64,000 nucleotides of DNA from Pristiophorus japonicus (taxonomy: Eukaryota), in the NCBI RefSeq assembly GCF_044704955.1, contig NC_091987.1:117490001-117554000 (forward strand), in the 5' to 3' direction. The notes under the pieces were generated by a model that was given only the letters and a program-made list of their open reading frames with translations, was not told the DNA's origin and searched no databases. Below, in pieces: positions 1,021 through 43,424 of this stretch (the stretch's first letter is position 1; each line of letters starts with the position of its first letter). Both the position numbers and the translations under genes were made by a program.

Positions 1021-1068
1021 GCACCATTTCTTCAAATACTGCAGGACCTTCACCATCCAGCAAGACAG
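1021..1068 (+). CDS. Micro-exon type A, 48 nt, (G)TISSNTAGPSPSSKT
   Basis: tttacag|GCACC...AAGACAG|gtactt; phase 1-1, open. Confidence 0.7.
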
Positions 1069-1490
1069 GTACTTGAAAAGTGTTTTCTGAGAATGTGGTG
1101 GTTTAAGTCAGTTGTTTAGAACCAGAGAGAACCATTTGACAAATGATCCAGTGATGCCAATCTCAGCTGCATTAATTGTGAAAGAGCCATTTTGATGTTG
1201 GATGCGTCTCATAGACGTAGGCCTGTGATCGTAGCCTTTAATGTCAACCTTGATGCTGTTATAGGCCTGGTACATTAGCCCCACAATATAATTGCGGGAC
1301 ATTTTCAACTTCAGTGTGGGCGGGGAGTTTGCAGTTGTGGATTGGCCACCTGTTATACACCTCAGCCGATTTTCTTATCCATTAGATTCAGCCGGGTTCT
1401 ATAAAAGACCACATCTCCAGATTATCCCCTGGGCAGCGAAGGCGTAAATTTAACACACCCATCCTAACCACGAGTAATCTTTTTGCTTAG

Positions 1491-1525
1491 AATACCTTTA
1501 CCATCGCTTACATCTCTTGTGACAG
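1491..1525 (+). pseudogene. Dead type C micro-exon
   Basis: Acceptor changed to gcttag (shifted) and internal deletion; 35 nt with a TGA in the spliced frame. Confidence 0.6.
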
Positions 1526-2293
1526 GTAATTGCAAATGGGTGTTGAAGAATTTTTAATTTTGAAAATGACAGCCGTACATTAATGGACAAAGTTTGATTG
1601 TTGTTTACAAGACTGTACAAATTTACTTGTGCTCCGTCTCATTAATGCAAATGATTAACAAATTCTGCCCCCTCTGTTCATTGGCCATCAGCATCTCCAT
1701 TAAGGTGCATAGGGAAGGACTGGACAGATAGAGAACTGGTTTGATCCAATTGTCTTGTCACACGCCCCATATCACTGTTGCTGGAACCTCTGAAAAACAT
1801 CAGTATACTTCTTAATTATATGAAAAGAAACAGTTAACTGCTTGTAAATGGGATGTATTGACACCAGAGGGGGAAACGGTGCATCACAGTGAGTGCATAG
1901 CTTGTAGATGTGTGGAAGAAACTCAGGGTAAAGAGCCGTTCCACAGAAAATCAACAGTGGCACAATTTTAATGGGGGTTAAGATCAAAGATTTAGAATTA
2001 ATATTAAATCTTATGAATCTCTTTGGATTGATTTAAATTCAAAATGGGCTTTAGACAAAAAAAGTCTAAATTTGACTGGGAATAGATGTTTTTATTCATG
2101 GCTGTAGCTTTGTTACAGAAACTATTGGAGAGAATAGTCTGAATATTTTAAACTCATGAAAAATTTAACATTTTACAATATAAACCTCAAGTAGTTCACC
2201 TATGCCATAATCTGTGACCACTTTACAAAATAATGTTGCAGACTGGGTATGGCTGTTCATTGACTGATCTGAAATCTTGTACTTTCCTTACAG

Positions 2294-2341
2294 AAAACAG
2301 CACTGCTGTTAACATGACATCTTCTCCACAGAACACAACAG
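2294..2341 (+). CDS. Micro-exon type B, 48 nt, (E)NSTAVNMTSSPQNTT
   Basis: ctttccttacag|AAAAC...ACAACAG|gtactg; phase 1-1; three N-X-S/T sequons. Confidence 0.75.
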
Positions 2342-3120
2342 GTACTGAAATTGCGCACTTCGAAAATATTCAGTGTATAAGAAAGCTGATGCTGAAATTG
2401 AGTAGTTAAGAACTACAGGAAGCTGCTGATGTGATTTATAATCAAATCATACAGGACAGAAGGAGGCTATTGGGCCCACTCTAACTGTACCGGCTCTTTG
2501 AATGAGCTTTGCAATTAGTCCCACTATTCTGCTCTTTCCCCATAGCCCTGCAAATTTCTCCTTTTCAACTATACAACCAATTCCCTTTTGAAAGTTACTA
2601 TTGAATCAATTTTGCACCACCTTTTCGGGCAGTGCATTTTAAAACTTAGCAACTCACTGCGTAAAAATAATTTCTCTTCAGCACCCCTCGACTGCTTTTG
2701 CTAATTACCTTAAATCCATGACCTCAAGTTACCATGCCTTCTGCAAGAAGAAGCATTTTCACCTTTCTTACTCTGAGAAAACCATTCTTTATATTGAACA
2801 CCTCTATAAAATCTCCTCTTAACCTTCTCTGCTCTAAGAAGGTTTGATTCGGGAAAGATCTTCAGCCCTCATTTGATCTCATGCTATTAAAGTACCCACC
2901 GCAATCATTTTCCCATTACTGAATTACTGCATGCATTATGAAGCAAGAAGTGTTGGATTGGGAGACTGGTATACAATCACCTGAGTTTCAGAGCAATACA
3001 GTCAGTTTAAAGTTTTATACCATTAAATCAAAAACCTAACTTAAGTTGAAATATTAATAATTTACAATGCATGTGCAATATTTAAGTGTATCAGATTGTT
3101 GCTTCTGTTAGATGTGTTAG

Positions 3121-3156
3121 TTAAATTAATCACATCATCTCCAGCAAACAAGACAG
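3121..3156 (+). CDS. Possible 36-nt type A' micro-exon (V)KLITSSPANKT
   Basis: tgttag|...AAGACAG|gtgctg; in frame but weak polypyrimidine tract. Confidence 0.35.
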
Positions 3157-3568
3157 GTGCTGGAAATGCACTTTCTGAGAAAGTGGTGGTTTATGTTAGT
3201 TGTTTAAAACCAGAGCGAACCGCTGGAACGATGATCCGGTGAAGTCAATCTCTGCTGCATGAATTGTGAAAGAGCCATGTTGAAGTTGGACGTAGACCTG
3301 TGATCGCAGCCTTTAAAGTCAGCCTTGATGCCGCTGTGAACCATGGACCTGGGACATTAGCCCCACAATACAATTGGGGGTAATTTGCAACTTCAGCGCA
3401 GTCGGCGAGCTTGTATTAGTGGATTGGCCACCTGTTATACACCTCAGCTGATTTTCTTATCCACTGACTTCGGCCGGTTTCTATAAATTGCCATCGGCAG
3501 ATTATCCCCTGGGCGGTGAAGACGGAAATTTAACACGTCCGTCCTAACCACTAGTAATCTTTTTGCAG

Positions 3569-3616
3569 AGAATACCTTCACCATGACTCCCACATCAACT
3601 ACATCTCTTGTGACAG
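3569..3616 (+). CDS. Micro-exon type C, 48 nt, (E)NTFTMTPTSTTSLVT
   Basis: ctttttgcag|AGAAT...GTGACAG|gtaatt; phase 1-1. Confidence 0.7.
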
Positions 3617-4035
3617 GTAATTGCAAATGGGTGTTTGAGAATTTTACATTTTGAAAATGACAGCCGTACATTAATGGACAAAGTTTGATTGTTGTTTACG
3701 AGACTGTATGAATGTACTTGTGCTCCATCTCACCAATGCTGAATGATTGTCAAAGTCTGCCCCCTCTGTTCATTTAGGTGCAAAGTGATGCACAGGGAAT
3801 GACTGGACAGAGAGAGAACTGGTCAGATCCAATTGTCTTGTTACACGCCGCATATCACTGTTGCTGGAACCTGTACAAAACATCAGTATATTTCTTAATT
3901 ACACAAAACAGAGCAATCAGCTGCTTGCAAATGGCATGTATTGCCACCAGAGGAGGAAACGGTGCATCACAGTGTGTGCATAGGTTGTAGATGTGTGGAA
4001 GAAACTCAGGGTAAACAGCTGCTCCACAGAACATT

Positions 4036-5410
4036 GGCCCCAAGTTTCCACATGATTTGCTCCTGATTTTTCGGAGCAACTGCTGTAGAACGGAGTATTT
4101 TAGAAATCGGAATTCTCGTCATTTAGTTAGTTAGAACAGTTTCACTTTGGAACAGAATTTTTTTTTCAAAAGGGGGCGTGTCCGGCCACTTACGCCTGAT
4201 TTCAAAGTTTCGTGAGTGAAAACTTACTCCAAACTAACTTAGAATGGAGTAAGTGAAGATTTTTGTCCGCTCGAAAAAACCTTGTCTACACTTTAGAAAA
4301 TCAGGTGTAGGTTACAAATTAGGTGTAGGGAACGAGGTGGGGTGGGGGGGGGGGGGGGAGGGGGGGAAGGGAAGTCATTAAATTCTACAATCAATCCTTA
4401 GTTATATTTATACAAATAAATCCAACCTGAATAAAAATTTATAAGCAAAGAAAAGATTAAATAAACCATGTTCCTACCTGTGTGAAATAGCATCAGCCTT
4501 CGAGCTGCAGTGCTTGAGGCAGGCCTTCATTCTCTTCGTGGCTGGCCGCGAAGAAGCAGCACCGGACGGACCCGAGGCCATTCGACCATGAGATATCAGC
4601 GGCGTCAGTGGCTGGCCGGCAGCCGAAGAATCAGCAGTGGACCGACGTGAGGCCTTTCGGCCATAGGATATCAGCGGCGTCAGTGGCTGGCCGGCAGCCG
4701 AAGATACAGCAGCAGCCTTCGAGCTGTGAGGGGGACGGAGGCCATTTGGACAGGGAGAGGCAGCCACATCGACAGTTTTATATTTAAATTTGCAGAATGG
4801 GTGCTGCATTGTCAACACCACATATTATGCAATGATTTGCCATCATTGTTCTTGGTGGACGTTGATCCATTGCAAAGTTGAATTGGCACTCTTACTTCTC
4901 CAAACACACAGTCCTTAATTTGCATGCACCATTGCAGCACCGGTTCTGCAAGTTTAGCAGTGAAAAGCTGAACTCACTGATTTCAGCAGGTGATTTATTC
5001 AGCAGTGCTGCTAAAAGCATTCCCTCACACACAGAAATATCAAAAAAAAAATTACAAGCCTTTGCAGGGGTCCAAGAAACAAATCTTCACTTTTTCTGCA
5101 GTATTTAAAAAAATGGCCGAGTGCCAATGTTTGTGTGAGACTGCGCGTGCGCGCACGCTCCAACGCGCACGCGCAGGGTTGCCGGCACCACGAAGGCTAA
5201 TTTAAATTGTACCCGCCCCCTGCTACTTAGAAAATCGGCGCGAGTGTTAGGCTCCGCCCCCTGCTGCGAAGAGCGCGCCGCGCCAAGCAGACATCGAGCT
5301 TCAAGGAGCTCGAGAATATCGGATTTTTTTTTAGGCGCAGTTTTCAGCGCGAAAAACAGGTGTCCAGCTCGGAGGTGCGCTGTTTTTGCCGCGGCACGAA
5401 ACTTGGGGCC
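4036..5410. mobile_element. Non-autonomous PIF/Harbinger-like TIR element
   Basis: TIR ggccccaagtttc / gaaacttggggcc, flanked by att/att; absent from other units; internal ~76-bp tandem duplication at 4540-4710. Confidence 0.8.
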
Positions 5411-5760
5411 ATTGAGTGGCACAATTTTAATGCGGGTTAAAATCAAGCACTTAGATTTAATATTACATTTTATGAAATTGGTTCTGTTTGGGATGATTTA
5501 AATTCAAATGGGCTTTAGACAAAAAAAGTCTAAATTTGACTGGGAATAGATGTCGTTTTTATTCATGGCTGTAACTTGGTTACAGAAACTGTTGGAGGGA
5601 ATAGTCTGAATCTATTAAACGCATGAAAAATGTTACATTTTACAATATATTCCTTAAATCATTCATCTGTGCCATAATCTGTGGACACTTTACAAAATAA
5701 TGTTGCAGACTGGGTGTAGATGTTCATTGTCTGATCTGAAATCTTGTACTTTCTTTATAG

Positions 5761-5808
5761 GAAACATCACTACAGTTAACGTGACATCTTCTCCACAGAC
5801 CACAACAG
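5761..5808 (+). CDS. Micro-exon type B, 48 nt, (G)NITTVNVTSSPQTTT
   Basis: ttctttatag|GAAAC...ACAACAG|gtactg. Confidence 0.75.
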
Positions 5809-6626
5809 GTACTGAAATTGTGCTCTTTGAAAATATTCAGAACAAAGAAAGCTGATACTGAAATTGAGTAGTTAGGAACCACAGGAAAGTGCTGATGTGA
5901 TTTACATCAAATCACACAGGATAGAAGGAGGCTATTCGGCCCATTGTGCTTGTGCCGGCTCTTTGAATGAGCTTTCCAATTAGTCCCACTACTCTGCTCT
6001 TTCCCCATAGCCCTGCAAATTTCTCCTTCTCAAGTATACAAGCAATTACCTTTTTAAAGTTACCATTGAACCACCTTTTCAGGCAGTGCATTCTAGACCA
6101 TAACAACTCGCTGTGTAAAAATAATTTCTTCTCAGCTTCACTCAAGTACTGTTGCTTATTACCGAAAATCCATGACCTCGTAACCAGCCCACCTGCCAAT
6201 CGAAGCATTTTCTCCTCACTTACTCTAGAAAAAGCATTCAGAATTTCGAACACATCTATTAAAATTCCTCTTAATCTTCCCTGCTCTAAGGAGGTTTGAA
6301 TCGAGAAGGACTTTCAGCCCAATCCATTTAATCCTACTAAAGTACCAACTGCACTCACTTTCACATTACTGAATTACTACACACATCATAAAGCTAAAAG
6401 TGTTGGATTGGGAGACTGGGATTCAATCACCTGAGTTTCTGGGCTATACAATTGCTTTACATTTTTATACTGTTAAATCAATAACCTAACTTAAGCTGAA
6501 AGATTACCCAGGTACAATGCATGTATATAAATGTGCAACATTTAAGTGTAACTGATTGTTGCTTCTGTTAGATTGTAATAGGTTTGCTAATCACATCTGA
6601 TCTAATATGTTGTACAATGTTTACAG

Positions 6627-6674
6627 GCACCTTTTCTTCAAATACTGCAGGATCGTCACCATCTAACAAGACAG
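6627..6674 (+). CDS. Micro-exon type A, 48 nt, (G)TFSSNTAGSSPSNKT
   Basis: tttacag|GCACC...AAGACAG|gtactg. Confidence 0.7.
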
Positions 6675-7084
6675 GTACTGGAAATGTGTTTTCTGAAAAT
6701 GTGGTGGTTTAAGTCAGTTGTTTAGAACCAGAGAGAACTGTTTGAGCAATGATCCAGTGATGCCAATCTCAGCTGCATGAATTGTGAAAAAGCCATTTTG
6801 AAGTCGGATGCGTCTCATAGACGTAGACCTGTGATCACAGCCTTTACTGTCAACCTTGATGCTGCTATGGACCTGGGACATTAGCCACACAATACAATTG
6901 TAGGACATTTTCAAATTCAGTGCAGGCAGGAAGCTTGCAGTCGTGGTTATACACCTCAGCCGATTTTCTTATCTATTGGGTACTGCCGGGTTCTATAAAA
7001 GGCCACTTCTCCAGATTATCCCCTGGGCGGCGAAGGTGTAACTTTAACACATCCGTCCTAACCTCTAGTAATCTTTTTGTTTAG

Positions 7085-7130
7085 AATAGCTTTACCATAA
7101 CTCCCACATTGCCTACATCTCTTGTGACAG
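7085..7130 (+). pseudogene. Dead type C micro-exon
   Basis: Original gcag acceptor lost (gtttag, shifted by 2 nt); 46 nt with an immediate TAG in the spliced frame. Confidence 0.6.
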
Positions 7131-7899
7131 GTAATTGCAAATGGGTGTTGGAGAATTTTACATTTTGAAAATGAGAGCCGTACATTAAGGGACAACGTTT
7201 GATTGTTGTTTACGAGACAGTACGAATGTACTTGTGCAACATCTCACCAATGCTGAATGATTGACAAGTTCTGCCCCCTCTGTTCATTGGCCATCAGCAT
7301 CTCCATTTAGGTGCACAATGATGCACAGGGAAGGACTGAACAGAGAGAGAACTGGTCAGATCCAATTGTCTTGTCACACGCCCCATATCACTGTTGCTGG
7401 ATCCTGTGACAAACATTAGTACATTTCTTAATTACACAAAACAAAGTAGCCAACTGCTTGCAAATGGCATGTATTGCCACCAGAGGAGGAAACGGTGTAT
7501 CACAGTGAGTGCACAGATTGTAGATGTGTGGAAGAAACTCAGGGTAAACAGTTGTTCACAGAACATTATCAGTGGCACAATTTTAATGCGGGTTAAGATG
7601 AAAGACATAGAATTAATATTAAAACTATTAAATTGGTTCTGTTTAGGATGATTTAAATTCAAAAAATTCTAAATTTGAGTGGGAATAGATGCTGTTTTTA
7701 TCCATGGCTGTAATTCTGTTGCAGAAACTGTTGGATGGAATACTCTGACTCTTGATAACTCATGTAAAATTTAACACTTTACAATATAAACCTCAAGTAG
7801 TTCACCTATGCCATAATCTGTGGACACTTTACAAGATAATGTTGCAGACTGGGTGTGGCTGTTCATTGGTTGATCTGAAATCTTTTACTTTCTTTACAG

Positions 7900-7947
7900 A
7901 AAACAGCACTATTGTTAATGTGACATCTTCTCCACAGACTACAACAG
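7900..7947 (+). CDS. Micro-exon type B, 48 nt, (E)NSTIVNVTSSPQTTT
   Basis: ttctttacag|AAAAC...ACAACAG|gtcctg (weaker donor). Confidence 0.65.
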
Positions 7948-8357
7948 GTCCTGAAATTATGCTCTTTGAAAATATTCAGAACAAAGAAAGCTGATGCTGA
8001 AATTGAGTAGTTAGGAACCACAGGAAAGTGCTGATGTGATTTATCGTCAAATCATACAGGACAGAAGGAGGCTATTCGGCCCATTGTGCAGGCTCTTTGA
8101 ATGAGCTTTCTAATTAGTCCCACTATTCGGCTCTTTCCCCATAGCCCTGCAAATTTCTCCTTTTCAAGTGTACAAGCAATTAGCTATTGAAAATTAGTAA
8201 TGCATCAGCTTCCACCAACTTTACAGGCAGTGCATTCGAGACCATAACAGCTCGCTGCATAAAAATATTTTCTCCTCAGCTTCCCTCAAGTGCTGTTGCT
8301 TATTACCTAAAATCCATGACCTCAAGTTACCAGCCCTCCTGCCAATCGAAGCATTTT

Positions 8358-9563
8358 AAGAACATAAGAACATAAGAAATAGGAACAGGAATAGGCCATA
8401 TGGCTCCTCGAGCCGCTCTGCCATTCAACCATTCATGGCTGATCTGATCGTGGACTCAGCTCTACTTCCCCACCCGCTCCACATAATCCCTTATCTCCTT
8501 ATCGTTTAAGAAGCTGTCTATTTCTGTCTTAAACTTATTCAATGTCCCAGCTTCCACGGCTGCAGCGAATTCCACAGATTCACAACCCTCTGAGAGAAGA
8601 AATTTCGCCTCATCTTTGTTTTAAATGGGCGGCCCCTTATTCTAAGATCGTGCCCGCTAGTTCTAGTCTCCTCCATGAATGGAAACATCCTCTCTGCATC
8701 CAACTTGTCAAGCCCCCTCATAATCTGATACGTTTCTATAAGATCACCTCTCATTCTTCTGAATTCCAATGAGTAGAGGCCCAACCTACTCAACCTTTCC
8801 TCATAAGTCAACCCCCTCATCCCCGGAATCAACCTAGTGAATCTTCTCTGAACTGCCTCCAAAGCAAGTATATCCTTTAGTAAATATGGAAACCAAAACT
8901 GCACGCAATATTCCAGGTGTGGCCTCACCAATACATCGTATAGCTGTAGCAAGACTTCCCTGCTTTTATACTCCATCCCCTTTGCAATAAAGGCCAAGGT
9001 ACCATTGGCCATCCTGATCAGTTGCTGTACCTGCATACTATCCTTTTGTGTTTCATGCACAAGTACCCCCAGGTCCCGCTCTACTGCAGCAATTTGCAAT
9101 CTTTCTCCATTTTAAATAATAACTTCCTCTTTGATTTTTTGCTGCCAAAGTGCATGACCTCACACTTTCTAACATTATACTACATCTGCCAAATTTTTGC
9201 CCACTCACTTAACCTGTCTATGACCTTTTGCAGATTTTTTGTGTCCTCCTCACATGTTGCTTTTCCTCCCATCTTTGTATCATCAGCAAACTTGGCTACG
9301 TTACACTCAGTCCCTTCTTCCAAGTCGTTAATATAGATTGTAAATAATTGGGGTCCCAGCAATGAACTCTGCAATGAACTAGTTACTGGTTGCCAACCAG
9401 AAAATGAACCATTTATCCCAACTCTCTGTTCTCGGTTAGTTAGCCAATCCTATATCCATGCTAATAAATTACCCCCAACTCCGTGAACTTTTATCTTGTG
9501 CTGTAACCTTTTATGTGGCACCTTGTCAAATACCTTCTGGAAGTCCAAATACACCACATCCAC
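8358..9563 (-). mobile_element. CR1 LINE 'A', 3' part (host of nested insertions; resumes at 11084-11120, 16170-16779 and 21387-21415)
   Basis: (aagaacat)n tail at 8358; ORFs with [20 protein letters not shown] and VNLWNSL. Confidence 0.9.
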
Positions 9564-11083
9564 CAAATACACCAAATAATTCTCTGGACTCTGGGGAGGT
9601 ACCAGCGGATTGGAAAGCAGCTAATGTAACGCCTCTGTTTAAAAAAGGGGGCAGACAAAAGGCAGGTAACTATAGGCAGGTTAGTTTAACATCTGTAGTG
9701 GGGAAAATGCTTGAAACTATCATTCAGGAAGAAATAGTGGGACATCTAGATAGGAATAGTGCAATCAGGCAGACGCAGCATGGATTCATGAAGGGGAAAT
9801 CATGTTTAACTAATTTACTAGAATTCTTTGAGGATATAACGAGCATGGTGGATAGAGATGTACCGATGGATGTGGTGTATTTAGATTTCCAAAAGGCATT
9901 CGATAAGGTGTCACACAAAAGGTTACTGCTGAAGATAGAGGTACGCGGAGTCAGAGGAAATGTATCAGCATGGATAGAGAATTGGCTGGCGAACAAAAAG
10001 CAGAGTGTCGGGATAAATGGGTCCTTTTCGGGTTGGAAATCTGTGGTTAGTGGTGTGCCACAGGGATCAGTGCTGGGACCACAACTGTTTACAATATACA
10101 TAGATGACCTGGAAGAGGGGACAGAGTGTAGTGTAACAAAATTTGCAGATGACACTAAGATTAGTGGGAAAGTGGGTTGTATAGAGGACACAAAGAGGCT
10201 GCAAAGAGATTTGGATAGATTAAGCGAATGGGCGAAGGTTTGGCAGATGGAATACAATGTCGGAAAGTGTGAGGTCATCCACCTTGGGAAAAAAAACAGT
10301 AAAAAGGGAATATTATTTGAATGGGGAGAAATTACAACATGCTGAGGTGCAGAGTGACCTGGGGGTCATTGTGCATGAATCCCAAAAAGTTAGTTTGCAG
10401 GTGCAGCAGGTAATCAGGAAGGCGAATGGAATGTTGGCCTTCATTGCGAGAGGGATGGAGTACGAAAGCAGGGAGGTCCTGCTGCAACTGTATAGGGTAC
10501 TGGTGAGGCCGCAGCTGGAGTACTGCATGCAGTTTTGGTCACCTTACTTAAGGAAGGATATACTGGCTTTGGAGGGGGTACAGAGACGATTCACTAGGCT
10601 GATTCCTGAGATGAGGGGGTTACCTTATGATGATAGATTGAGTAGACTGGGTCTTTACTCGTTGGAGTTCAGAAGGATGAGGGGTGATCTTATAGAAACA
10701 TTTAAAATAATGAAAGGGATAGACAAGATAGAGGCAGTGAGGTTGTTTCCACTGGTAGGGGAGACTAGAACTAGGGGGCACAGCCTCAAAATACGGGGGC
10801 GCCAATTTAAAACCGAGTTGAGAAGGAATTTCTTCTCCCAGAGGGTTGTGAATCTGTGGAATTCTCTACCCAAGGAAGCAGTTGAGGCTAGCTCATTGAA
10901 TGTATTCAAATCACAGATAGATAGATTTTTAACCAATAAGGGAATTAAGGGTTACGGGGAGCGGGCGGGTAAGTGGAGCTGAGTCCACGGCCAGATCAGC
11001 CATGATCTTATTGAATGGCGGAGCAGGCTCGAGGGGCTAGATGGCCTACTCCTGTTCCTAATTCTTATGTTCTTATGTTCTTA
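9564..11083 (+). mobile_element. CR1 LINE 'B', 5'-truncated, RT domain with one frameshift
   Basis: ORFs 9458..10345 and 10257..10982 ([27 protein letters not shown]); ttcttatg tail; 'acatccac' on both sides. Confidence 0.92.
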
Positions 11084-11120
11084 CATCCACTGGTTCCCTT
11101 TCATCCACCCTGTCCGTTGC

Positions 11121-25331: not shown

Positions 25332-25376
25332 AATACATCACCACTGTTAATGTGACATCTCCACAGTACACAACAG
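25332..25376 (+). CDS. Micro-exon type B, 45 nt, (E)YITTVNVTSPQYTT
   Basis: ttccttacag|...ACAACAG|gtactg; in-frame one-codon deletion. Confidence 0.7.
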
Positions 25377-31600: not shown

Positions 31601-32587
31601 CATAGTGCTTGAATCGACATTGAAGGGCTCTATGATTACTCCCGCAGCACCAACATGGTGTTAATAGATTCGTATTCACGCCCCACAGCGGACTCTGAGT
31701 CATCCTAGGTCTGGCCTCTGCAGGCGTGTAGGCCCTGCCATGTACAGTTCTGCCTGCTGAAGGCGTTATTTTATGCACAGTACTTGCCGGTGAGCATCGA
31801 TACTGAGAAGATATCTGCTTAGTATTATCGTTCGTGGACATGAAAGCCTGGGCTATCGTGATGGCCTTGCTCAGATCTAGGGATTCGGCTGACAGCATTT
31901 TGCGAAGAATGACCTCGTGGCCAATTCCAAGCATGAAAAAGTCCTGCAACATTTCCCCCAAAAGTCCGGCAAATTCGCACGGTCCCGCAAGGCATCTTAG
32001 GTCGGCGACATAGCTCGCCACGTCCTGGCTCTCGGAGCAGTGGTGCATATAAAAGCGATACCTGGCCATTAAGACGCTCTCCTTGCAACTTGAGACGTTC
32101 CCGAACCAGCATGCATAACTCTGCCTATGCCTTGTCCATTGCTTTCGTCGGTGCTAGCAGATTTTTGATGAGGCCATATATCGTGGACCCACAAATGGTG
32201 AGGTGAGTCGCCCTGCGCTTGACCGCATTACTGTCTGTACCCAGCTCGTTGGCCATGAATATTGGTCAAGATGCTCAACGAAGGCTTCCCAATCATCACG
32301 CTCAACAATCTCTCAAGAATACCAACAGCAGCCATAACCGCGTGAAAGTTCGTGATCTGTTACTCGTCGCCAATTGTTATGTTCAGAATAACTCCACAAG
32401 ACTGTGTGTTGTAAGCTCAAACTGATGTGACCTTAGTCTCTTTAATCAAACTCCAGAGTGAAGAATCAGCAGGGCAGACAACCTTTTATGCTTGATTGCA
32501 CGAGGTGTGCAGGTGACCCTTGGGTCTCCAACAGGTGCTCCCCCTGGTGGCAAGTCTTACACTATTATAAAGTTTACATACATAACA
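25674..32587 (-). mobile_element. Second Ty3/Gypsy LTR retrotransposon (related family, different LTR), decayed
   Basis: LTRs 25674-25885 and 32375-32587; TSD cattc; PBS tggcgacgag; ORFs 30666..32069 (gag/PR), 29957..30652 (RT/RH) and 26368..26841 (IN). Confidence 0.95.
26796..29204 (+). mobile_element. CR1 LINE nested in the integrase region of Gypsy 2
   Basis: Broken ORF2 pieces at 26935-28960; decayed ttctatgt tail near 29175-29204. Confidence 0.92.
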
Positions 32588-33076
32588 CATTCTAAACCTT
32601 AACAACTCACTGCGTGAAAATAATTCCTTCTCAGCTCCCCTCGAGTGCTGTTGCTAATTACCTTAAATTCATGACCTCAAGTTATCGCCCCTCCTGCAAT
32701 AAAAGTATTTTCTCTTACTTACTCGAGAAAAAAACATTCAGAATTTTGAACACATCTATTAAATCTCCTCTTAATCTTCTCTGCTCTAAGGAGGTTTGAA
32801 TTGAGAAGGACCTTCAGCCCATTTGATCTCATCCTATTAAAGTACCAACCGCACACATTTTCCCATTACTGAATTACTACACGCATCATGAAGCAAGAAG
32901 TGTTGGATTGGGAGACTGGGATTCAATCAGCTAAGTTACAGGGCAATATAATTGATTTACAGTTTTATACTATTAAATCAAAGACCTAACAGGCTAAAAT
33001 AGTAATCATGTACAATGCATGTATATACGTGCAATATTTAAGTGTATCTGATTGTTGCTTCTGTTAAATATGTTAG

Positions 33077-33112
33077 TTTCGCTAATCACATCATCTCCAT
33101 CAAACAAGACAG
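33077..33112 (+). CDS. Possible 36-nt type A' micro-exon (V)SLITSSPSNKT
   Basis: tgttag|...AAGACAG|gtgctg; weak acceptor. Confidence 0.35.
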
Positions 33113-33538
33113 GTGCTGGAAATGCACTCTCTGAGAATGTGGTGGTTTATGTTAGTTGTTTAAAACCAGAGAGAACCGCTGGAATGATGATACAGTGATG
33201 CCAAGCTTTGCTGCATGAATTGTGAAAGAACCATGTTGAAATTGGATGCGTTCCATAGACGTAGACCTGTGATCGCAGCCTTTAATGTCAACCTTGATGC
33301 CGTTGAGAACCATGGGCCTGGGATATTAGCCCCATAATACAATTGGGGGTAATTTGCAACTTCAGTGCAGTTGGCGAGCTTGCAGTAGTGGATTGGCACC
33401 TGTTATACACCTCAGCCGATTTTCTTATCCATTGGATTCGGCTGGGTTCTATCAAAGGCCACTTTGCCAGATTATCCGCTGGGCGGTGAAGATGGAAATT
33501 TAACATGCCCGTCTTAACCACTAGTAATCATTTTGCAG

Positions 33539-33586
33539 AGAATATCTTTACCATAACTCCCACATTGCCTACATCTCTTGTGACAG
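33539..33586 (+). CDS. Type C micro-exon with GC donor, (E)NIFTITPTLPTSLVT; non-canonical or dead
   Basis: ttttgcag acceptor intact, 48 nt open, donor gcaatt instead of gtaatt. Confidence 0.35.
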
Positions 33587-34065
33587 GCAATTGCAAATGG
33601 CTATTTGAGAATTTTATATTTTGAAAATGACAGCCGTACATTAATGGACAAAGTTTGATTGTTGTTTACGAGACTGTACGAATTTACTTGTGCTCCATCT
33701 CATCAATGCAGAATAATTGACAAATTCTGCCCCCTCTGTTCATTGTCCATCAACATCCCCATTAAGGTGCACAATGATGCACAGGGAAAGACTGGACAGA
33801 AAGAGAACTAGTCAGATCCAATTGTCTTGTCACACGCCACATCCCACTGTTGCTGGAACCTCTGAAAAACATCAATATACTTCTTAATTACATAAAAAGA
33901 AGCAGTCAACTGCTTGCAAATGGCATGTATTGACACCAGAGATGGAGACGGTGCATCATAGCGAGTGCACAGTTTGTAGATGTGTGGAAGAAACACAGGG
34001 TAAACAGCCATTACACAGAATGTCATCAGTGGTGCAATTTTAATGGGGGTTAAGATCAAAGACTC

Positions 34066-37000
34066 GGGGCTTGACTTTCCATTATTTTTGCATCGATTCC
34101 GCCCATGTAAAGTCCATTTTAATGCTGAGATGAGGTATAACGCCCAGATATCGCCCATTTAGCAACAAAATGGAAACTAACGCCCATGTATCGCTCACTT
34201 AACGCCCAGCATTACTTTCGTCATGTACTTAATGCCGAGAATTAATAATAGCGCCGGTCCAGTTTTTTTTGCCGTAAAGTTCAGAATGGGCGAAACTAAT
34301 GCCCATAATATCGCCGAGTGTTACTTTTGGCACTTCATCCATATCCGAAAATATCGCTCACCGAAAAATATGTTGAGAAAAAGTTGCTCTCACCTGAACT
34401 AAACCCAACGGTATGGACGTCATTTTGTAAATTGGAGGTCGGTTCATATAAAAGGCTGCTTTAATTTCTGGGGAGTTTTGATGTACTCAGGAGGTCATTT
34501 AAGGTGATTTGAACATCTGAGCAAACATCTTATCATACTGTGGATGATTTGAATTTATTTTAAGTGTTTTAGTAGGTAAATTTATTGTTTGTGAACAATA
34601 GGTATAATACTAATTGTTATTGTAATGGGGCCTGTAATTTTTCAGCCTGTCTTGATGACTACACACATGCTGCAGGATAGAGATGGCAGAAGGTATATTC
34701 AAGAGCATTATGTGCCCAGTCAAAGAGGTGGCAGACTGAGGAGGAGGACGAGAACTTACACCCCACATATATACAGGGAGAAGCGGTCTTATCTGAGACA
34801 ATGCGCAACAAGGTTATGTGAAATAAAAAACATTTAATGAGAACATTTGTATAAAATCATAATTATAGCTGTAAAAAACACCCCACCCCACCCCACAACA
34901 AATTTATATAATTCATTAAACTTTTAACCTTTCCAACAAAACTTCATAAACATAGAACACAAATGCAAAAAAACAAGGTACCATCCTCCCCCTTCCCCCA
35001 AACCCCCCGACAAAATAGCAACCACAACATAAAAATACTGTGACCAGTACAACTCCTGCGGTCATGCACCTGACTTTCCTTCCCGTCCCCCCCTCCCCCG
35101 CTTCTCCTCCCCACCTCTACCCCTTTCCCTTCCCCTCCTGACTCCAAGCCACCTTGCTGAGGAGCTCCTCAGGCGCTGCTTCATTGGGGAGGATGACGGC
35201 AGAACCGCTGGTTTACTGAATATAGGAGAGGATGGTCCCGAGGTGGGAACATGCTCCAAGCCAGTCACAAGACCTTCCTCCTGGCTCTCGTGTTGTTGGC
35301 AATGGGGACGCGGCACCTTGGGGTGCAGCGCCACGCTCCGGTACCACTGGGAGCCCTCTGGCACCAGTGTTCCTGGCCATCACCTCCGGGGCCTCCGCCA
35401 TCCACGGTACATACTCGGTCATGGTGGCGGACATGCTGGCCAGCTTTTGGGATATGCCACCCATTGTCTGGAGGATCTGCTGACCTTTTTTAACACTCCT
35501 CCTGGATAAGTATACCATGTCCCCGCTCAGATCTGCCGCTCATGGAGCAGTCCTGCTGCATCGAACCAACCTCCGCAGGGTCAGCGCCATCATGGAGACT
35601 TGGGGTGCCCTGTGGCAGGGTGCTTGGGCCTGCTACCTCCACAGTGGAGGGGGACATGACCGCAGGAACACCAGATGTCATCGGGGTTGCATAGATGATG
35701 GAGCTTGTCGATGCAGGCTCCTCAAAGTCAGCACTGTCATCAGTGGAGAAGGCACCCTGAAGCTCCATGGGTGAGATTCAGGGCTCCTCAGCACCATATT
35801 GACAATCCCCCAGTGAAGCAACTACCGGATTCTTGCCTCAGTGGTGTTGCATGTGGCTGCACTGCTGGCTGAGCTACAAAACATAAATGAGGTTATTAGA
35901 GGAGAAGGGGGTGCTAGGGTCACAAGATGATTCAAACGCTACACACAGCATATGCACGACAAAAGCACCACTGCTATCAACATCATCACAGACATCACAT
36001 TTCATGAACATGACCAAATTCTGCATTACAATGATTTTCATGAGGCCATCATTATTTAGATAACACTTTTATCAATCATCTATCATATATAAATGTTCGG
36101 ATATGACTGAGTGTGGCATCTATTGAATTTACGTCATGCAATGGTGTAAACTTTACTCACATGGCATCACATCAGGCTCTGCTGCTGCTTGCATGGCCGA
36201 CCGGGGGTGGCTCCCCACTAGTGCCAGCACCCGCTCCTCGATGTCTGAACTCGCTGATGACAGGTGGTCCTCCACCTGTGCGCCGCTGCTCGGCCCTATT
36301 ATTCGAAAGCTTCTGCAGAAAGTAACAACAGCTTGACTTGGCATGAGATCATTGCATGAGATCATCGCTAGGTACTGTCACAGAGACTGATACAACACAT
36401 AACTGACAGATGTAATCATGATTATTACGATAATTATAATTATTTACCTAAAGACGTACACTGTAAACACAGGCTTTGAGTAAAACATTTGCGGTATAAG
36501 TGCAAGACATCACATCTGATTTTAATCACTCATTACACTTACAATTCAAATTATATAAATAAATAAGTAAATGTAAATAAATGTAATACTCTGGCGGATC
36601 TGACAAGGTCGTTCCAGCGCTTGCAGCACTGGTTGCCCTCAGGCACCTTGTGTGTCGCCAATGAGACCACCTCAGCTATGTCAGCCCAAATTAACTGGTA
36701 TACCTTTGGGATGGGCTTCCCATGCCCACCCTGGGTCAATTGACTCCAGCATGACTCCACCTCCTGCAGGAGGGAGGCATTTGTCTCGTCAGAGAATCTC
36801 CGAGCTCATTTTCATCCTCCCACTTCCAGTTTCTCACCTACCTCACTGCTCTCGCCAGCATCCTCACCCTTCACATTGTGCTGTCGCCTCCGCCATGCCT
36901 TCCATTTAATTATATTTTTTTCCCCAAATCACCATGCAAACAAAGTTATTTGTGCTCTCAATTCTTTTTACTGCTGCTAAATCTCTTTTCTACCTCGCAT

Positions 37001-37347
37001 AACAGCCAAACAACCATACAACACACCCACACGCTTTCAGTTCCTCTTTGCTCCCTCTCACTCTCTCTCCTCTTCTGCGCATGTATTGATGACCCCTGAC
37101 CTGAAACGTGGAAAACGACCATTGCCATGGCGTTGCTATGCACGCTGACATTTTACGGCAGAAGGGCAAAAAATTTACCGCTAACGCCCATTTCACATCA
37201 CTCCCGATAATGCCCATTTTATAAAGTGGAAAGTTGGGGTTTTGAAACTGGGCGATAATCCGGCGATCTCAAAACCCATAATAAATGCCAATGCTGGAAA
37301 TAATGCCCATTTTTGGATGATCTGCACAATAATGAAAAATCTAGCCT
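34066..37347. mobile_element. Internally deleted PIF/Harbinger transposon: transposase N-terminal stub (+) and decayed, intron-containing Myb/SANT-like gene (-)
   Basis: Imperfect TIR gggcttgactttcc / gaaaaatctagcc. Minus-strand WADIAEVVS...QCCKRWNDL (36590-36760) can splice to KLSNNRAEQRRTGGG (about 36312 down). Plus-strand stub 34625-34795 ends YREKRSYL. Confidence 0.8.
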
Positions 37348-37658
37348 TTAGAATTAATATTAAAAGTTATGAATTTGGTTCTGTTTGGGATGATTTAAAT
37401 TCAAAATGGGCTTTAGACAAAAAAAGTCTAAATTTGACTGGAAATAGACATTGTTTTTATTCATGGCTGTAACTTGGTTGCAGAAACTGTTGGAGGGAAT
37501 AGTCTGAATCTATTAAATTCATGGAAAATGTTGCATTTTACAATATAAACCTCAAGTAGTTCACCAATGCCATAATCTGTGGACACTTTACAAAGTAATG
37601 TTGCAGACTGGGTATGGCTGTTGATTGTCTGAACTGAACTCTTGTACTTTCCTTACAG

Positions 37659-37706
37659 AAAACAGCACTACTGTTAACGTGACATCTTCCCCACAAAACA
37701 CAACAG
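37659..37706 (+). CDS. Micro-exon type B, 48 nt, (E)NSTTVNVTSSPQNTT
   Basis: ttccttacag|...ACAACAG|gtactg. Confidence 0.75.
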
Positions 37707-38557
37707 GTACTGAAATTGCGCACTTTGAAAATATGCAGTGTATAAGAAAGCTGATGCTGAAATTGGGTAGTTAAGATCCATAGTAAACTGTTGATGTGAT
37801 TTATCGTCGAATCATACAGGACAGAAGGAGGCTATTGAGCCCAATGTACCTGTGCAGGCTCTTTGAATGAGCTTTCCAATTAATCCCACTACTCTGCTCT
37901 TTCCCCATAGCCCTGCAAATTTCCCCTTTTCAAGTATACATTCAATTCCCTTTTGAAAGTTACTATTCAATTACCATTTACCACCTTTTCAAGCAGTGCA
38001 TTCTAAACCTTAACAACTCGCTGCGTAAAAATAATTCTTCTTCAGCTCCCCTCGAGTGCTGTTGCTAATTACCATAAATCTATGACCTCTAGTTACTGCC
38101 CCTCCTGCCAGTAGAAGCTTTTTGACCTGCTTACACTATCAAATGATTCAGAATTTTGAACACATCTATTTAATCTCTTCTTAGTCTTCTCTGCTCTATG
38201 GAGGTTTGAAACAAGAAGGACCTTCAGCCCATTCGATCTCATCCTATTAAAGTACCAACCGCACTCATTTTCCCATTACTGAATTACTACACACATCATA
38301 AGGCTAAAAGTGTTGACTTGGGAGACAGGGATTCAATCACCTGAGTGACATTGTTTCTACTCATGGCTGTAATTTTGTTGCAGAAACTGTTGGAGGGAAT
38401 AGTCTGAATCGAGTAAACTCATGCAAAATTTAACATGTTGCACTATAATCCTTAAATCGTTCATCTGTGCCATAATCTGTGGACAGTTTACAATGTAATG
38501 CTGCAGACAAGGTGTGGCTTTTGATTGCCTGATCGAAATCTTGTACTTTCCTTACAG

Positions 38558-38602
38558 AATATAGCACCACTGTTAATGTGACATCTCCACAGTACACAAC
38601 AG
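38558..38602 (+). CDS. Micro-exon type B, 45 nt, (E)YSTTVNVTSPQYTT
   Basis: ttccttacag|...ACAACAG|gtactg; same codon deletion as 25332. Confidence 0.7.
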
Positions 38603-39355
38603 GTACTGAAATTGTGCTCTTTGAAAATATTGAGAATGTAAGACACCTGATGCTGAAACTGAGTAGTTAGGAACCACAGGAAACTGCTGATGTGATTTTT
38701 CATCGAGTCATACAGGACAGAAGGAGGCTATTCAGCCCATTGTGCCTGTGCCGGCTCTTTGAATGAGCTTTCCAATTAGTCCCACTGCTCTGCTCTTTCC
38801 CCATAGCCCTGCTAATTTCTCCTTTTCAAGTGTATATCCAATTCCCTTTTGAAAGTTACTATTGAATCAGCTTCCACCACCTTTTCAGGCAGTGCATTCT
38901 AAACCTTAACAACTCGCTGCGTAAAAATAATTTCTCCTCAGCTCCCCTCGAGTGCTGTTGCTAATTACCTTAAATCCATGACCAGAAGAAGCATTTTCAC
39001 CTTACTTACTCTGGGAAAACCATTCTTTATATTGAACACCTCTATAAAATCTCCCTTTAATCTTATCTGCTCTAGGCAGTTTGAATCGATAAGGACCTAC
39101 AGCCGATTTGATCTCATCGTTTAAAGTACTAACTGCACTCATTTTCCCATCACTGAATTACTACACTCACCATCAAGCTAAAAGTGTTGGATTGAGAGAC
39201 TGTGATTCAGTCACCTGAGTTTCAGGACAATACAGATTTACAGATTTATACTATTAACTCAAAAACCTAACTTAATGTGAAATATTAATCATGTACAATG
39301 AATGTATATGCAACCTTTAAGCATATCTGATTGTTGCTTCTGTTAAATGTGTTAG

Positions 39356-39391
39356 TTTCACAAATCACATCATCTCCATCAAACAAGACAA
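39356..39391 (+). CDS. Possible 36-nt type A' micro-exon (V)SQITSSPSNKT
   Basis: tgttag|...AAGACAA|gtgctg; both splice sites weak. Confidence 0.25.
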
Positions 39392-39792
39392 GTGCTGCAA
39401 ATGCACTTTCTGCGAATGTGGTGGTTTATGTTAGTTGTTTAAAACCAGAGAGAACCGCTGGAACGATGATCTGGTGAAGTCAATCTCTGCTGCATGAATT
39501 GTGAAAGAGCCGTAGACGTAGACCTGTGATCGCAGCCTTTAATATCAACCTTGATCCCGTTGTGAACCATGGGCCTGGAACATTAGTCCCATAATACAAT
39601 TGGGGGTCATTTGTAAATTCAGTGCAGGCGGGGAGCTTGCAGTCATGGATAGGCCACCTGTTATACACCTCAATTTCCTTATCCATTGGATTTGGTCGGT
39701 TTCTATGAAAGGCCACTTCTCCAGATTATCCCCTGGGCAGCGAAGACGGAAATTTAACACATCCGTCCTAACCACTAGTAATCTTTTTGCAG

Positions 39793-39840
39793 AGAATACC
39801 TTTACCATAACTCCCACATCATCTACATCTTTTGTGACAG
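39793..39840 (+). CDS. Micro-exon type C, 48 nt, (E)NTFTITPTSSTSFVT
   Basis: ctttttgcag|AGAAT...GTGACAG|gtaatt. Confidence 0.7.
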
Positions 39841-40406
39841 GTAATTGCAAATGGGAATTTCAAATTTTGAAAATGACAGTCCTACATTAATGGACAAAAT
39901 TTGATTGTTGTTTACGAGTCTGTACGAATGTATTTGTGCACCAATGCAGAATGATTGACAAATTCTGCCCCCTCTGTTCATTGGCCATCAACATCCCCAT
40001 TAAGGTGCACAAAGATGCACAGGGAATGACTGGACAGAGAGAGAACTGGTCAGATCCAATTGTCTTGTCACACAACCCATATCACTGTTGCTAGAACCTG
40101 TGAAAAACATCAGTATACTACTTAATTACACAAAACAAAGCAGTCAGCTGCTTGCAAATGGCATGTATTGACACCAGAGGGGGAAATGGTGCATCACGGT
40201 GTGTGCATAGGTTGTAGATGTGTGGAATAAACTCAGGGTAAACAGCCGTTCCACAGAACATCATCTGTGGCATAATTTTAATGGTGGTTAAGATCAGCGA
40301 CTTGGAACTAATATTAAAACTTATGAAATTTGCAATGTTTGTGCTGATTTGAATTCAAAATGGGCTTTAGACAAAAAAAGTCTAAATTTGATTGGGAATA
40401 GACATT

Positions 40407-41128
40407 GGGCTCAATTATCCCCAGTGATTTGCGCTGTTTTTTTTTGAGCAGGCTGCCTTTTTTGTCCTAAGTTTAAAAAAAAAACAGTTGCCCCAATCAA
40501 TTTGCACCAGCGTAACTGAGTTAGTAATGATTTTTTTAGGTTAGTATTTTTTTCAGGTGAAGGTGGTGTAACCTGCCACCTGTGCCAATTCTGGCCATTT
40601 AGGCAAGTTTCACCAGCTGAGAATTACTCCAGTTCTGCTTAGGCCAGCGTATGTGGCCTGTGTAGAAAAATCTTCTGGAGAGTTAAGAAAATCGGCGCAA
40701 GTAAGTAAATCAATGCAGCAGTTGTCCAGAGAGAGACAGGGAGACAGAGAGACAGAGTGACAGAGAGACCGATTCGGGCAGCGGACCGGGGAGGCCATTT
40801 GGGATCGGACCTTTGGCTGGGGACATTGGAGATAAGTTGCTGCAATACATTTCACTGTGTTTTTAAGTTGATGCAATGTGTTTTAATGTGTTGCGAGCTG
40901 GCTGTATGTTTCACTTTGCAGCCTCAGCTCACATTGTGTCCCTTGTTACCATGGTAGCCCGATCTTTCTGGCTCCACCCCCAAAACTAAAGGACAGGTTT
41001 GACCACGCCAAAATGAAGAAATCCAACGGGGAAATTTAGAACATTTTTTTTGGCGTACTTGGGCCCCCAAAACATGAGCATAACTCTTCAAGTACGGCAA
41101 AAAAATAGCTTTGGGGAAAATTGAGTCC
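40407..41128. mobile_element. Non-autonomous PIF/Harbinger-like MITE
   Basis: TIR gggctcaattatcccca / tggggaaaattgagtcc; flanks att/gtt; absent from other units. Confidence 0.8.
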
Positions 41129-41319
41129 GTTGTCTTCATTCATGGCTGTAACTTGATTGCAGAAACTGTTGGAGGAATAGTCTGAATCTATTAAACTCAT
41201 GAAAAATGTAACATTTTACAATATAATCCTTAAATCCTGCATCTGTGCCATAACCTGTGGACAGTTTAAAACATAATGTTGCTGACAGGGTGTGGCTGTT
41301 CATTGTCTGAGGCTTACAG

Positions 41320-41367
41320 AATACATCACTACTGTTAATGTGACATCTTCTCCACAGAACGCAACAG
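41320..41367 (+). CDS. Micro-exon type B, 48 nt, (E)YITTVNVTSSPQNAT
   Basis: ggcttacag|...GCAACAG|gtactt; polypyrimidine tract partly deleted. Confidence 0.55.
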
Positions 41368-42142
41368 GTACTTAAATTTCGCTCTTTGAAAATAATCTGA
41401 ATATAAGAAATCTGATGCTGAAATTGAGTGGTTAGGAACCACAGGAACCTGCGGGTCATCGAGTCATACAGGGCAGAAGGAGGGCAATGCAGCCCATTGT
41501 GCCTGTGCCAGCTCATTGAATATGCTATTCAATTAGTCCCACTAGTCTGCTCTTTCCCCATAGCCCTGCATGTTTCTCATTTTCAAGTGTACATCCAATT
41601 ACCTTTTCAAAGTTACTATCGAATCAGCTTCCACCACATTTTCAGGCGTTGCATTCTAGATCATAACAACTCACTGCGTGAAAATAATTCCTCCTCAGCT
41701 CCCCTCGAGTGCTGTTGCTAATTACCTTAAATTCATGACCTCAAGTTACCGCCCCTCCTGCAATAGAAGTATTTTCTCTTACTTACTCTAGAAAAAACAT
41801 TCAGAATTTTGAACACCTCTATTAAATCTCCTCTTAATCTTCTCTGCTCTAAGGAGGTTTGAATTGAGAAGGACCTTCAGCCCATTTGATCTCATCCTAA
41901 TAAAGTACCAACCGCACTCATTTTCCCATTGCTGAATTACTACACACATCATAACGCTAAAAGTGTTGGATTGGGAGACTGGGATTCAATCATCTGAGTT
42001 TCAGGGCAATACAATCGATTTACAGTTTTATATTATTAAATCAAAAACTAACTTAAGGTGAAATATTAATCATATACAACGCATGTATATACACATGCAA
42101 TATTAAAGTGTAACTGATTGTTGCTTCTATTAAATATGTTAA

Positions 42143-42179
42143 TTTCACTCAATGACATCTTCTCCACCAAACAAGACAG
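42143..42179 (+). pseudogene. Dead type A' micro-exon
   Basis: Acceptor position reads tgttaa and donor reads cag|atactg. Confidence 0.6.
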
Positions 42180-42585
42180 ATACTGGTAATGCACTTTCTG
42201 AGAATGTGGTGATATAAGTTAGTTGTTGAAAACCAGAGAGAATTGCTGGAATGATGACCCAGTAATTCCAATCTCAGTTGAATCAATAGTGAAAGTTGAA
42301 GTTGGATGCATCTCATAGACGTAGAGTGTGATTGCAGCCTTTTATCTCAACCTTGATGCTGCTGTGAACCATAGGCCTGGGACATTAGTCCCATAATACA
42401 ATTGGGGGTCATTTGCAAATTCAGTGCAGGTGAGGAGCTTGCAGTAGTGGATTGGCTACCTGTTATACACCTCAGCCGATTTTCTTAGCCACTAACATTG
42501 GCTGGGTTCTTTAAAAGGCCAGATTATCTCCTGTCATTTTCAAAATTTAATATGTCCATCCTAACCATTAGCAATCTTTTTGCAG

Positions 42586-42624
42586 AGAATACCTTTACCA
42601 TAATTCCCACATCTCTTGTGACAG
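42586..42624 (+). CDS. Micro-exon type C, 39 nt, (E)NTFTIIPTSLVT
   Basis: ctttttgcag|...GTGACAG|gtaatt; in-frame 9-nt deletion. Confidence 0.65.
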
Positions 42625-43376
42625 GTAATTGCAAATGGGTATTTGAGAATTTTAAATTTTGAAAATGACAGCCGTACATTAATGGACAAAGTTTGATTGT
42701 TGTTTACGAGACTGTATGAATGTACTTGTGCTCCATCTCACCATGCAGAATGATTGACAAATTCTGCCCCCTCTGATTATTGGCCATCTGCATCTCCATT
42801 AAGGTGCACAATGATGTACAGGAAAACTGGTCAGATCCAATTATCATGTCACTGTTGCTGGAATCTCTAAAAAACATCAAAATACTTCTTAATAACACAA
42901 AAAGAAGCTGTCGATTGCCTGCAAATGGATATATTGACACCAGAGGTGGAATCGGTGCATCACAGTGAGTGCATAGGTTGTAGATGTGTGGAAGAAACTC
43001 AGGGTAAACAGCCGTTCCACAGAACATCATCAGTGGCGCAATTTTAATGGGGGTTAAGATCAAAGACATAGAATTAATATTAAATCTTATGAATTTGGTT
43101 CTGTTTGGAATGATTTAAATTCAAAATGGGCTTTAAACACAAAAGTCTAAATTTGACTGGGAATAGACATTGTTTTTATTCCTGGCTGTAACTTGGTTAC
43201 AGAAACTGTTGGAGAGAATAATCTGAATATATTAAACTCATAAAAAATTTAACATTTTACAATATATTCCTTAAATCCTTCATCTGTGCCATAATCTGTG
43301 AACACTTTACAAAGTAATGTTGCAGACAGGTTGTGGCTGTTGATTGTCTGATCGAAATCTTGTACTTTCCTTACAG

Positions 43377-43424
43377 AAAACAGCACGACTGTTAACATCA
43401 CATCTTCTCCACAGAACACAAAAG
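43377..43424 (+). CDS. Micro-exon type B, 48 nt, (E)NSTTVNITSSPQNTK (last of the array)
   Basis: ttccttacag|...ACAAAAG|gtactg. Confidence 0.75.

Follow-up and report, generated by a model that had tools for sequence, protein, structure and literature searches.

Symmetric micro-exons in the stalk-coding region of a shark ADGRG2 orthologue

In the shark Pristiophorus japonicus, a window of 64,000 nucleotides (nt) on contig NC_091987.1 (positions 117,490,001 to 117,554,000; the contig is called C11 below) covers the stalk-coding part of an ADGRG2 orthologue, an adhesion G protein-coupled receptor (GPCR) laid out as signal peptide, pentraxin domain, stalk, GAIN domain and seven-transmembrane (7TM) domain. 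The stalk is encoded by an array of short symmetric exons, most of which arose as exon-plus-intron units were duplicated in tandem, a process that also left dead copies behind. With slightly better than even confidence, we consider the stalk to be a glycosylated spacer for the pentraxin head, whose exon array turns over freely and whose repeat exons are mostly included, the variation that matters residing in a few cassettes at its 5' end.

The receptor gene and its stalk exons

Coding exons of the gene reach ~153 kb to the left and ~46 kb to the right of the window. A Pfam search with isoform X3 retrieved the 7TM domain (PF00002, E 9.6e-53), the GPS motif (PF01825, E 2.3e-13) and a pentraxin domain; the secretin-like 7TM domain follows the GPS motif, as is diagnostic of adhesion GPCRs, and the exons map onto the locus. 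The GPS sequence, CNHL/THFGILL, fits the consensus of cleavable sites, H-L/T, predicting autoproteolysis. When the three closest loci in the genome were compared by their 7TM exon for assignment to ADGRG2, ADGRG4 or ADGRG6, the exon of the present locus best matched ADGRG2 in the PDB (154.9 versus 145.4 and 137.4 bits), and the equivalent exons of the other two best matched ADGRG6 (C9) and ADGRG4 (C6), so that we rejected ADGRG4 and ADGRG6, to which the pentraxin domain and certain database names had pointed. The whole protein scored 699 bits against ADGRG2 and 576 against ADGRG6, the top amniote matches bear the ADGRG2 name, and among the best 120 matches the non-chondrichthyan entries are named ADGRG2 or GPR64 by at least one source, except for three unnamed or hypothetical ones. 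Judging by these matches, the gene is an ADGRG2 orthologue, as proposed in a preliminary description of the window made from its letters alone. The 60-amino-acid (aa) exon that opens the GAIN region cannot by itself identify the gene, because it has no Pfam match and reaches only E 0.16 in the PDB, to ADGRG6. Orthologues go by varying database names: G2-like, G6-like, G4-like or uncharacterized.

Upstream of the GAIN region, the window holds 15 exons with AG/GT borders, all of them phase 1-1 and free of stop codons (Table 1). They belong to three related types, A (three), B (nine) and C (three), and measure 48 nt in twelve cases, 45 nt in two and 39 nt in one. Joined, they give 705 nt, or 235 codons, with 21 N-X-S/T sequons and 47% Ser+Thr, and they lead to a GAIN exon entered in phase 1; the positions, borders, phase, lengths and sequon count of the preliminary description were all reproduced. 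Exon status, which it had claimed for all 15, stands for the 12 that match public isoform proteins letter for letter as Ser/Thr- and sequon-rich stalk; 39793, 41320 and 42586, which occur in none of 19 isoform models, are candidate exons, and 39793 may be a real minor exon. To call the array hidden was an overstatement, since most of its exons are already in the automated annotation. An initial strict splice-site scan caught only 5 of the 15 because their donors are non-consensus (those of A and B exons score between -3.4 and 2.3 against a simple consensus matrix); homology and isoform mapping were used instead. As a control for chance, a pattern shaped on these exons (yAG, pyrimidine-rich, 39-48 nt, AG/GT, open, at least 45% Ser/Thr/Pro), which misses exon 6627, was run over the 90 kb array region, where it matched 25 times on the + strand and twice on the - strand, and over both strands of 90 kb downstream and 74 kb upstream control regions, where it matched nowhere. 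The 15 exons are thus far above chance.

The array continues to the left of the window, as had been suspected, for ~120 kb (negative coordinates are relative to the window, the C11 position being 117,490,000 plus the number). The pentraxin exon ends in phase 1, and from there to exon 49252 we catalogued 32 phase 1-1 stalk exons, 30-96 nt in size. Of these, 17 lie outside the window on its left, 29 are used by one model or more, and some two thirds are of types A, B and C. Each of the 32 is a multiple of three in length and open in phase 1, and any subset keeps the frame, as the preliminary description had stated. A further in-frame AG/GT copy of type C, at -14081, is in no model. The stalk of isoform X1 is 46% Ser+Thr, with 33 sequons and no Cys.

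The window also contains eight degenerate copies that had previously been overlooked: four truncated A copies, three C copies with a mutated acceptor and one C copy with a GC donor. Copies 1489 and 7083 retain the GT and have another AG two bases further downstream; used together, these sites would produce exons of 35 and 46 nt that shift the frame. AG/GT borders alone are therefore no proof of a useful exon. The same state, with the true acceptor mutated and both the AG two bases on and the GT donor kept, is found in the C copy at -5341 as well as in 1489-1525 and 7083-7130; if spliced, these copies would shift the frame and could give a truncated secreted pentraxin-stalk product or decay. 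Throughout the array, the C copy that comes after each of the four live A copies has a mutated acceptor, and the one after each of the six truncated A copies has an intact CAG; the six truncated copies have one deletion boundary in common and form a group that also takes in the unit at -35398 (support 100/99). This pattern of live and dead copies, together with the common boundary, shows that two ancestral kinds of unit were amplified and interleaved with their states inherited, and that there were not ten independent events. The tree of B units resolves little, only 4 of its 12 inner branches being starred, and its pairing of copies -21019 and -20625 was an artefact of overlapping input. In this one assembly, all 15 B-unit matches lie at a single place on C11, and no second haplotype was found.

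Among the 13 used B exons, divergence was 0.134 within the exon versus 0.153 and 0.115 in the flanks, and dropped to 0.072 at the acceptor and 0.031 at the donor, with a ratio of nonsynonymous to synonymous differences (pN/pS) of 0.52. As the pairs behind these figures are not independent, they lend weak support to selection on splicing and composition, not on exact sequence. Frame-preserving indels were discarded as a sign of selection: 163 of 587 gaps in the flanks are multiples of three, and the exons offer too few gap events for counting, with lengths of 3 and 9 nt among the AG/GT copies and of 11 nt in one dead copy.

Variation among isoforms and species

The isoforms considered are automated protein predictions of the UniRef/RefSeq type, and the set comprises 19 of at least 24 numbered models (all but X2, X8, X9, X11 and X19). 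They differ from one another by cassettes, which may reflect alternative inclusion, with some junctions ambiguous; their stalks measure 296-424 aa, and each shows at most two separate deletions relative to X1. Four isoforms (X5, X13, X16 and X24) skip an exon of the window, and 5 of the 12 used window exons are present in all 19. X24 has the only large deletion in the repeat, and its junction is matched elsewhere in the array by a decoy whose 19 3' bases are identical. Exon 5761 does not differ from the copy at -13249, which creates decoys for the X13 and X16 junctions; all three junctions could stem from mis-mapped short reads or from alleles with fewer units. The regulated combinatorial use proposed in the preliminary description was not borne out by these models. 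Most of the modelled variation lies in unique 5' cassettes and not in repeat exons, and these cassettes, like the pentraxin head, were beyond the view of that description. A 96-nt phase 1-1 exon at -57674 to -57579 (L006) occurs only in X10, where it replaces four other cassettes.

Directly after the pentraxin exon follow two unique cassette exons of 36 and 45 nt (-119874 and -114354; C11 ~117,370,126-117,375,690, L012), the second of which carries the motif RKSRR, missing from 6 of the 19 models. Because these exons are unique in sequence, mis-mapping does not explain their variation. Across 13 species, an R-x-x-R motif located no more than 30 aa from the pentraxin domain, on one or two cassettes, is present in some models and missing from others in 8, namely this shark and seven other elasmobranchs, and one further species has a single model, which carries it. 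Set against the furin/convertase consensus, the R-x-x-R cassette is a candidate proprotein-convertase site and a candidate shedding switch.

Orthologous models across sharks and rays combine a pentraxin domain with a Ser/Thr- and sequon-rich stalk. The longest models of 12 elasmobranchs all keep a long stalk with 17-57 sequons, and its length differs between species (280-687 aa), which fits the preliminary proposal. A profile built from 10 B modules of P. japonicus, which therefore match by construction, detected 9-19 B-like modules per stalk in nine of nine sharks, compared with at most two in 100 shuffles, 0-3 in four batoids and none in five amniotes. Modules are homogenised within lineages: in Pristiophorus, Scyliorhinus and Heterodontus, their nearest neighbours lie within the same species (0.92-0.95 versus at most 0.74); those of bamboo and epaulette sharks, and of white and basking sharks, match their close kin better than their own species, which indicates that the expansions predate these two splits.

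For 10 elasmobranchs, we set every model against the longest one from that species. Of the 96 distinct isoform indels obtained, 93 fell within the stalk, and 48 of these 93 were 10-18 aa long; in other species' models single cassettes of 13-17 aa are missing at sites all along the stalk. This comparison drew on 110 models, among them 16 of the 43 from C. plagiosum, 14 of the 20 from C. punctatum and 17 of the 19 from Pristis, and left out P0049, P0106, P0118, P0100 and three Amblyraja fragments; clustering at 90% identity favours small differences among the models compared. Three Amblyraja radiata models named 'mucosal pentraxin-like' (P0097-P0099) correspond to the 5' half of ADGRG2, with the pentraxin domain and the first stalk cassettes; they probably represent a split annotation and possibly a secreted form.

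The Cys-rich segment of amniote ADGRG2 has no recognisable counterpart in the shark. With four amniote queries, the best tblastn match in the 384 kb examined had an E of 0.057, so that no hidden exon for the segment was found, and blastp gave no match at E 1 among P0001-P0123, although a very diverged or many-exon version could escape these searches. The segment is a feature of amniote ADGRG2, not of orthology. Pfam detects a pentraxin domain in a turtle ADGRG2 and none in the rat protein. In reptiles (turtle P0133, anole P0130, crocodile P0217) a pentraxin-like head and repeated Ser/Thr-rich cassettes precede the Cys-rich segment, and the mammalian models appear without a pentraxin head. The occurrence of pentraxin-headed ADGRG2 in cartilaginous fish and reptiles suggests that the head was lost in mammals.

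Features and surroundings of the window

Table 1. Features of the window (+ strand; models, number of the 19 isoform models that contain the exon)
Feature	Position	Strand	Length and phase	Models	Remarks
Tandemly duplicated exon-plus-intron units	585..43972	+			B-A-C order, ~76-91% identity, retroelement-interrupted; continue ~40 kb further left of the window
Type A exon	1021..1068	+	48 nt, phase 1-1	18/19	
Degenerate type C copy	1489..1525	+			mutated acceptor, 11-nt deletion
Type B exon	2294..2341	+	48 nt	18/19	
Truncated type A remnant	3136..3156	+			acceptor and 5' half gone
Type C exon	3569..3616	+	48 nt	17/19	
Type B exon	5761..5808	+	48 nt	18/19	all 48 nt identical to the copy 19 kb upstream (-13249)
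Type A exon	6627..6674	+	48 nt	16/19	
Degenerate type C copy	7083..7130	+			mutated acceptor
Type B exon	7900..7947	+	48 nt	17/19	weak donor GTCCTG
Type A exon	21821..21868	+	48 nt	19/19	
Degenerate type C copy	22265..22312	+			mutated acceptor
Type B exon	24442..24489	+	48 nt	19/19	
Type B exon	25332..25376	+	45 nt	19/19	3-nt deletion
Truncated type A remnant	33092..33112	+			
Type C copy	33539..33586	+		absent	AG acceptor, GC donor
Type B exon	37659..37706	+	48 nt	19/19	
Type B exon	38558..38602	+	45 nt	18/19	
Truncated type A remnant	39371..39391	+			
Type C candidate exon	39793..39840	+	48 nt	0/19	splice sites resemble used copy 3569
Type B candidate exon	41320..41367	+	48 nt	0/19	17-nt deletion upstream of acceptor
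Truncated type A remnant	42159..42179	+			donor lost
Type C candidate exon	42586..42624	+	39 nt	0/19	9-nt deletion
Final type B exon	43377..43424	+	48 nt	19/19	
First post-stalk exon, start of GAIN region	49252..49435	+	184 nt, phase 1 entry		100% identity to UniRef ADGRG2-like isoforms
GAIN-region exon	57318..57474	+			boundaries from exact protein match plus flanking AG/GT
GAIN-region exon	62442..62585	+			
GAIN-region exon	63040..63165	+			GPS and 7TM exons lie further on, reaching ~46 kb beyond the right end of the window

Two related remnants resembling retroelements with long terminal repeats (protease, reverse transcriptase and RNase H; 69% identical) lie on the - strand inside the array, at 17939-21104 and 29203-32298. 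Many reverse-transcriptase fragments of the long interspersed element type, in both orientations (8354-16780, 26158-29215, 44720-48386 and 52700-57042), break up the array and the GAIN introns, and the intron after exon 49252 contains a TC-rich microsatellite of ~400 bp (51165-51568). Exons of PDHA1 were found ~176 kb upstream on the opposite strand, head to head with ADGRG2, an arrangement that we take to match the human order of the two genes, on which we found no paper; a PHKA-type C-terminal match on C11 is not adjacent but 36 Mb away. Elsewhere in the genome, C13:98.6-112.9 Mb and C24:18.0-20.8 Mb harbour large tandem clusters of adhesion-GPCR genes with GPS and 7TM domains (~25 and ~19 GPS matches, respectively), those on C13 being 47-56% identical to the 7TM exon of the ADGRG2 gene.

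Readings of the array and its significance

In the reading that we favour, the product of the array would be an unfolded, N- and O-glycosylated spacer of ~300-425 aa that keeps the pentraxin head away from the GAIN-7TM part of the receptor. Symmetric exons would allow units to be gained, lost, skipped or killed without frameshift, and because every exon is symmetric, unequal crossing-over and gene conversion may keep the array turning over, with selection acting weakly, on composition and splice sites and not on exact sequence. Most repeat exons would usually be included, with single cassettes lost at some rate, and the variation that matters most would probably lie in the unique cassettes beside the pentraxin domain; with one of these, a possible convertase site (R-x-x-R) comes or goes. 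Several points weigh against this account. The transcript evidence is second-hand, consisting of automated protein models for part of the numbered isoforms, exon structure in other species was read from the sizes of indels, and glycosylation, disorder and cleavage are predictions from sequence. The A and C exons gave no detectable selection (pN/pS 0.95 and 1.14, from 4 and 3 copies), no R-x-x-R motif was seen in any model of 4 of the 13 species, and RKSRR is only a minimal fit to the furin consensus.

One could alternatively envisage a regulated combinatorial ruler, in which the subset of repeat exons picked by a cell type determines how long and how densely glycosylated the stalk is, as in CD45. 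The symmetry of all exons would permit this, weak donors such as those of A and B are typical of many cassette exons, isoform numbering runs up to X24 here and X44 in Chiloscyllium plagiosum, and the single cassettes missing along the whole stalk in other species would fit as well, as would tissue-restricted use of exon 39793, which resembles a used copy in its splice sites yet appears in no model. However, so few isoforms skip a window exon, so many of the used exons are constant, and so few deletions separate any model from X1, within a narrow range of modelled lengths whose large deletion, that of X24, has a decoy junction, that we regard such regulation as unlikely. An account that we consider about equally unlikely is that stalk length is unimportant over a wide range and that the array, whose symmetric exons do no harm, grows and shrinks by neutral turnover, with splicing noise and read mis-mapping generating isoforms that are low-level errors or artefacts. 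It accommodates the near-equal divergence of exons and flanking introns, the eight degenerate copies and three unused candidates beside 12 used exons in the window, the decoy junctions arising from the identity of 5761 to its upstream copy, and the wide span of longest stalks between species. It sits less well with the retention of a long sequon-rich stalk in all 12 elasmobranchs and of the B module in all nine sharks, with splice sites more conserved than their flanks and the pN/pS of 0.52 in B exons, and with the repeated skipping, in eight species, of unique post-pentraxin cassettes that map unambiguously. Finally, the segments might be coding-like islands in an intronic tandem repeat and not exons at all, given that they sit in duplicated intronic units and that some AG/GT copies go unused; we attach next to no credence to this, as 12 of the 15 are found letter for letter in isoform proteins, other sharks have stalks made up of related peptide modules, and controls contain 0-2 such segments versus 25.

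Partial precedents exist in other systems. For human ADGRG2, 11 variants and 9 isoforms are reported, with splicing concentrated at the N terminus (PMC8834492); N-terminal variation affects 72% of the mouse adhesion GPCRs examined, Gpr64 among them (PMC6667449), and is also described in PMC11039983 and PMC13197933. Mammalian ADGRG2 is the same gene and has short in-frame N-terminal cassettes too (12-16 aa, singly or paired, in rat and koala models), but these are few, and the protein has the Cys-rich stalk segment and, in the rat, no Pfam match to pentraxin, whereas the shark receptor combines a pentraxin head with 29-32 mostly tandem-duplicated cassettes and has no match to the Cys-rich segment. 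In the sister receptor ADGRG6 (GPR126; S1/S2 isoforms), exon 6 encodes a Ser/Thr-rich glycosylated insert after the pentraxin domain that opens the ectodomain and raises basal signalling, so that a single 23-aa cassette already matters, and mammals have a furin site in the same region, within the SEA domain (PMC6954182). The position after the pentraxin domain is equivalent, but ADGRG6 has one cassette of 23-28 aa beside its SEA domain, whereas ~30 cassettes make up the whole linker of shark ADGRG2, and the R-x-x-R motif of the shark, where cleavage is a prediction, lies on optional exons.

Beyond adhesion GPCRs, several frame-preserving exons also encode a Ser/Thr-rich N-terminal stretch in CD45, and catfish CD45 reportedly has thirteen alternatively spliced exons. 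In CD45 (PTPRC), cell-type-specific use of cassette exons A, B and C sets the length of an O-glycosylated N-terminal region (PMC8380896). CD45 is, however, an unrelated phosphatase with proven regulation, whereas in shark ADGRG2 regulation is hypothetical, the stalk is capped by a globular head and its modules are rich in N-glycan sequons. In CADM1, tiny alternative exons in an O-glycosylated stalk decide on ectodomain shedding (PMC5385562); they resemble the shark exons in size and setting, but are few, show no tandem amplification and act on juxtamembrane ADAM cleavage, in contrast to the distal candidate site of convertase type in shark ADGRG2. The shark exons are thus already in the automated annotation and their principle is known from ADGRG2, ADGRG6 and CD45; it is their scale that is unusual. 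We found no paper on the shark array and its history of exon birth and death in the literature searched, in which subscription journals are largely missing.

A more far-reaching combination, which we consider doubtful, would join a ruler to a release switch: ~30 exons would set the reach of the pentraxin domain, an optional convertase-site cassette would let the head be shed, and lineage-specific amplification would reset the range. A glycosylated chain extends by ~0.25 nm per residue. If this combination were true, each exon of ~16 residues would add roughly 4 nm of glycosylated chain, and a mechanosensitive-type GPCR would have its ectodomain length under graded, digital control, a trait that sharks and rays would have conserved. 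The locus bears on the question of how ectodomain length and shape are coupled to tethered-agonist signalling in adhesion GPCRs. It represents a natural series of stalks on one receptor, in steps of ~16 residues, which makes the relation of length to signalling directly testable, as is shedding through the candidate-cleavage cassette, which is optional in models of eight species. Moreover, it clearly exemplifies how symmetric exons are born and die.

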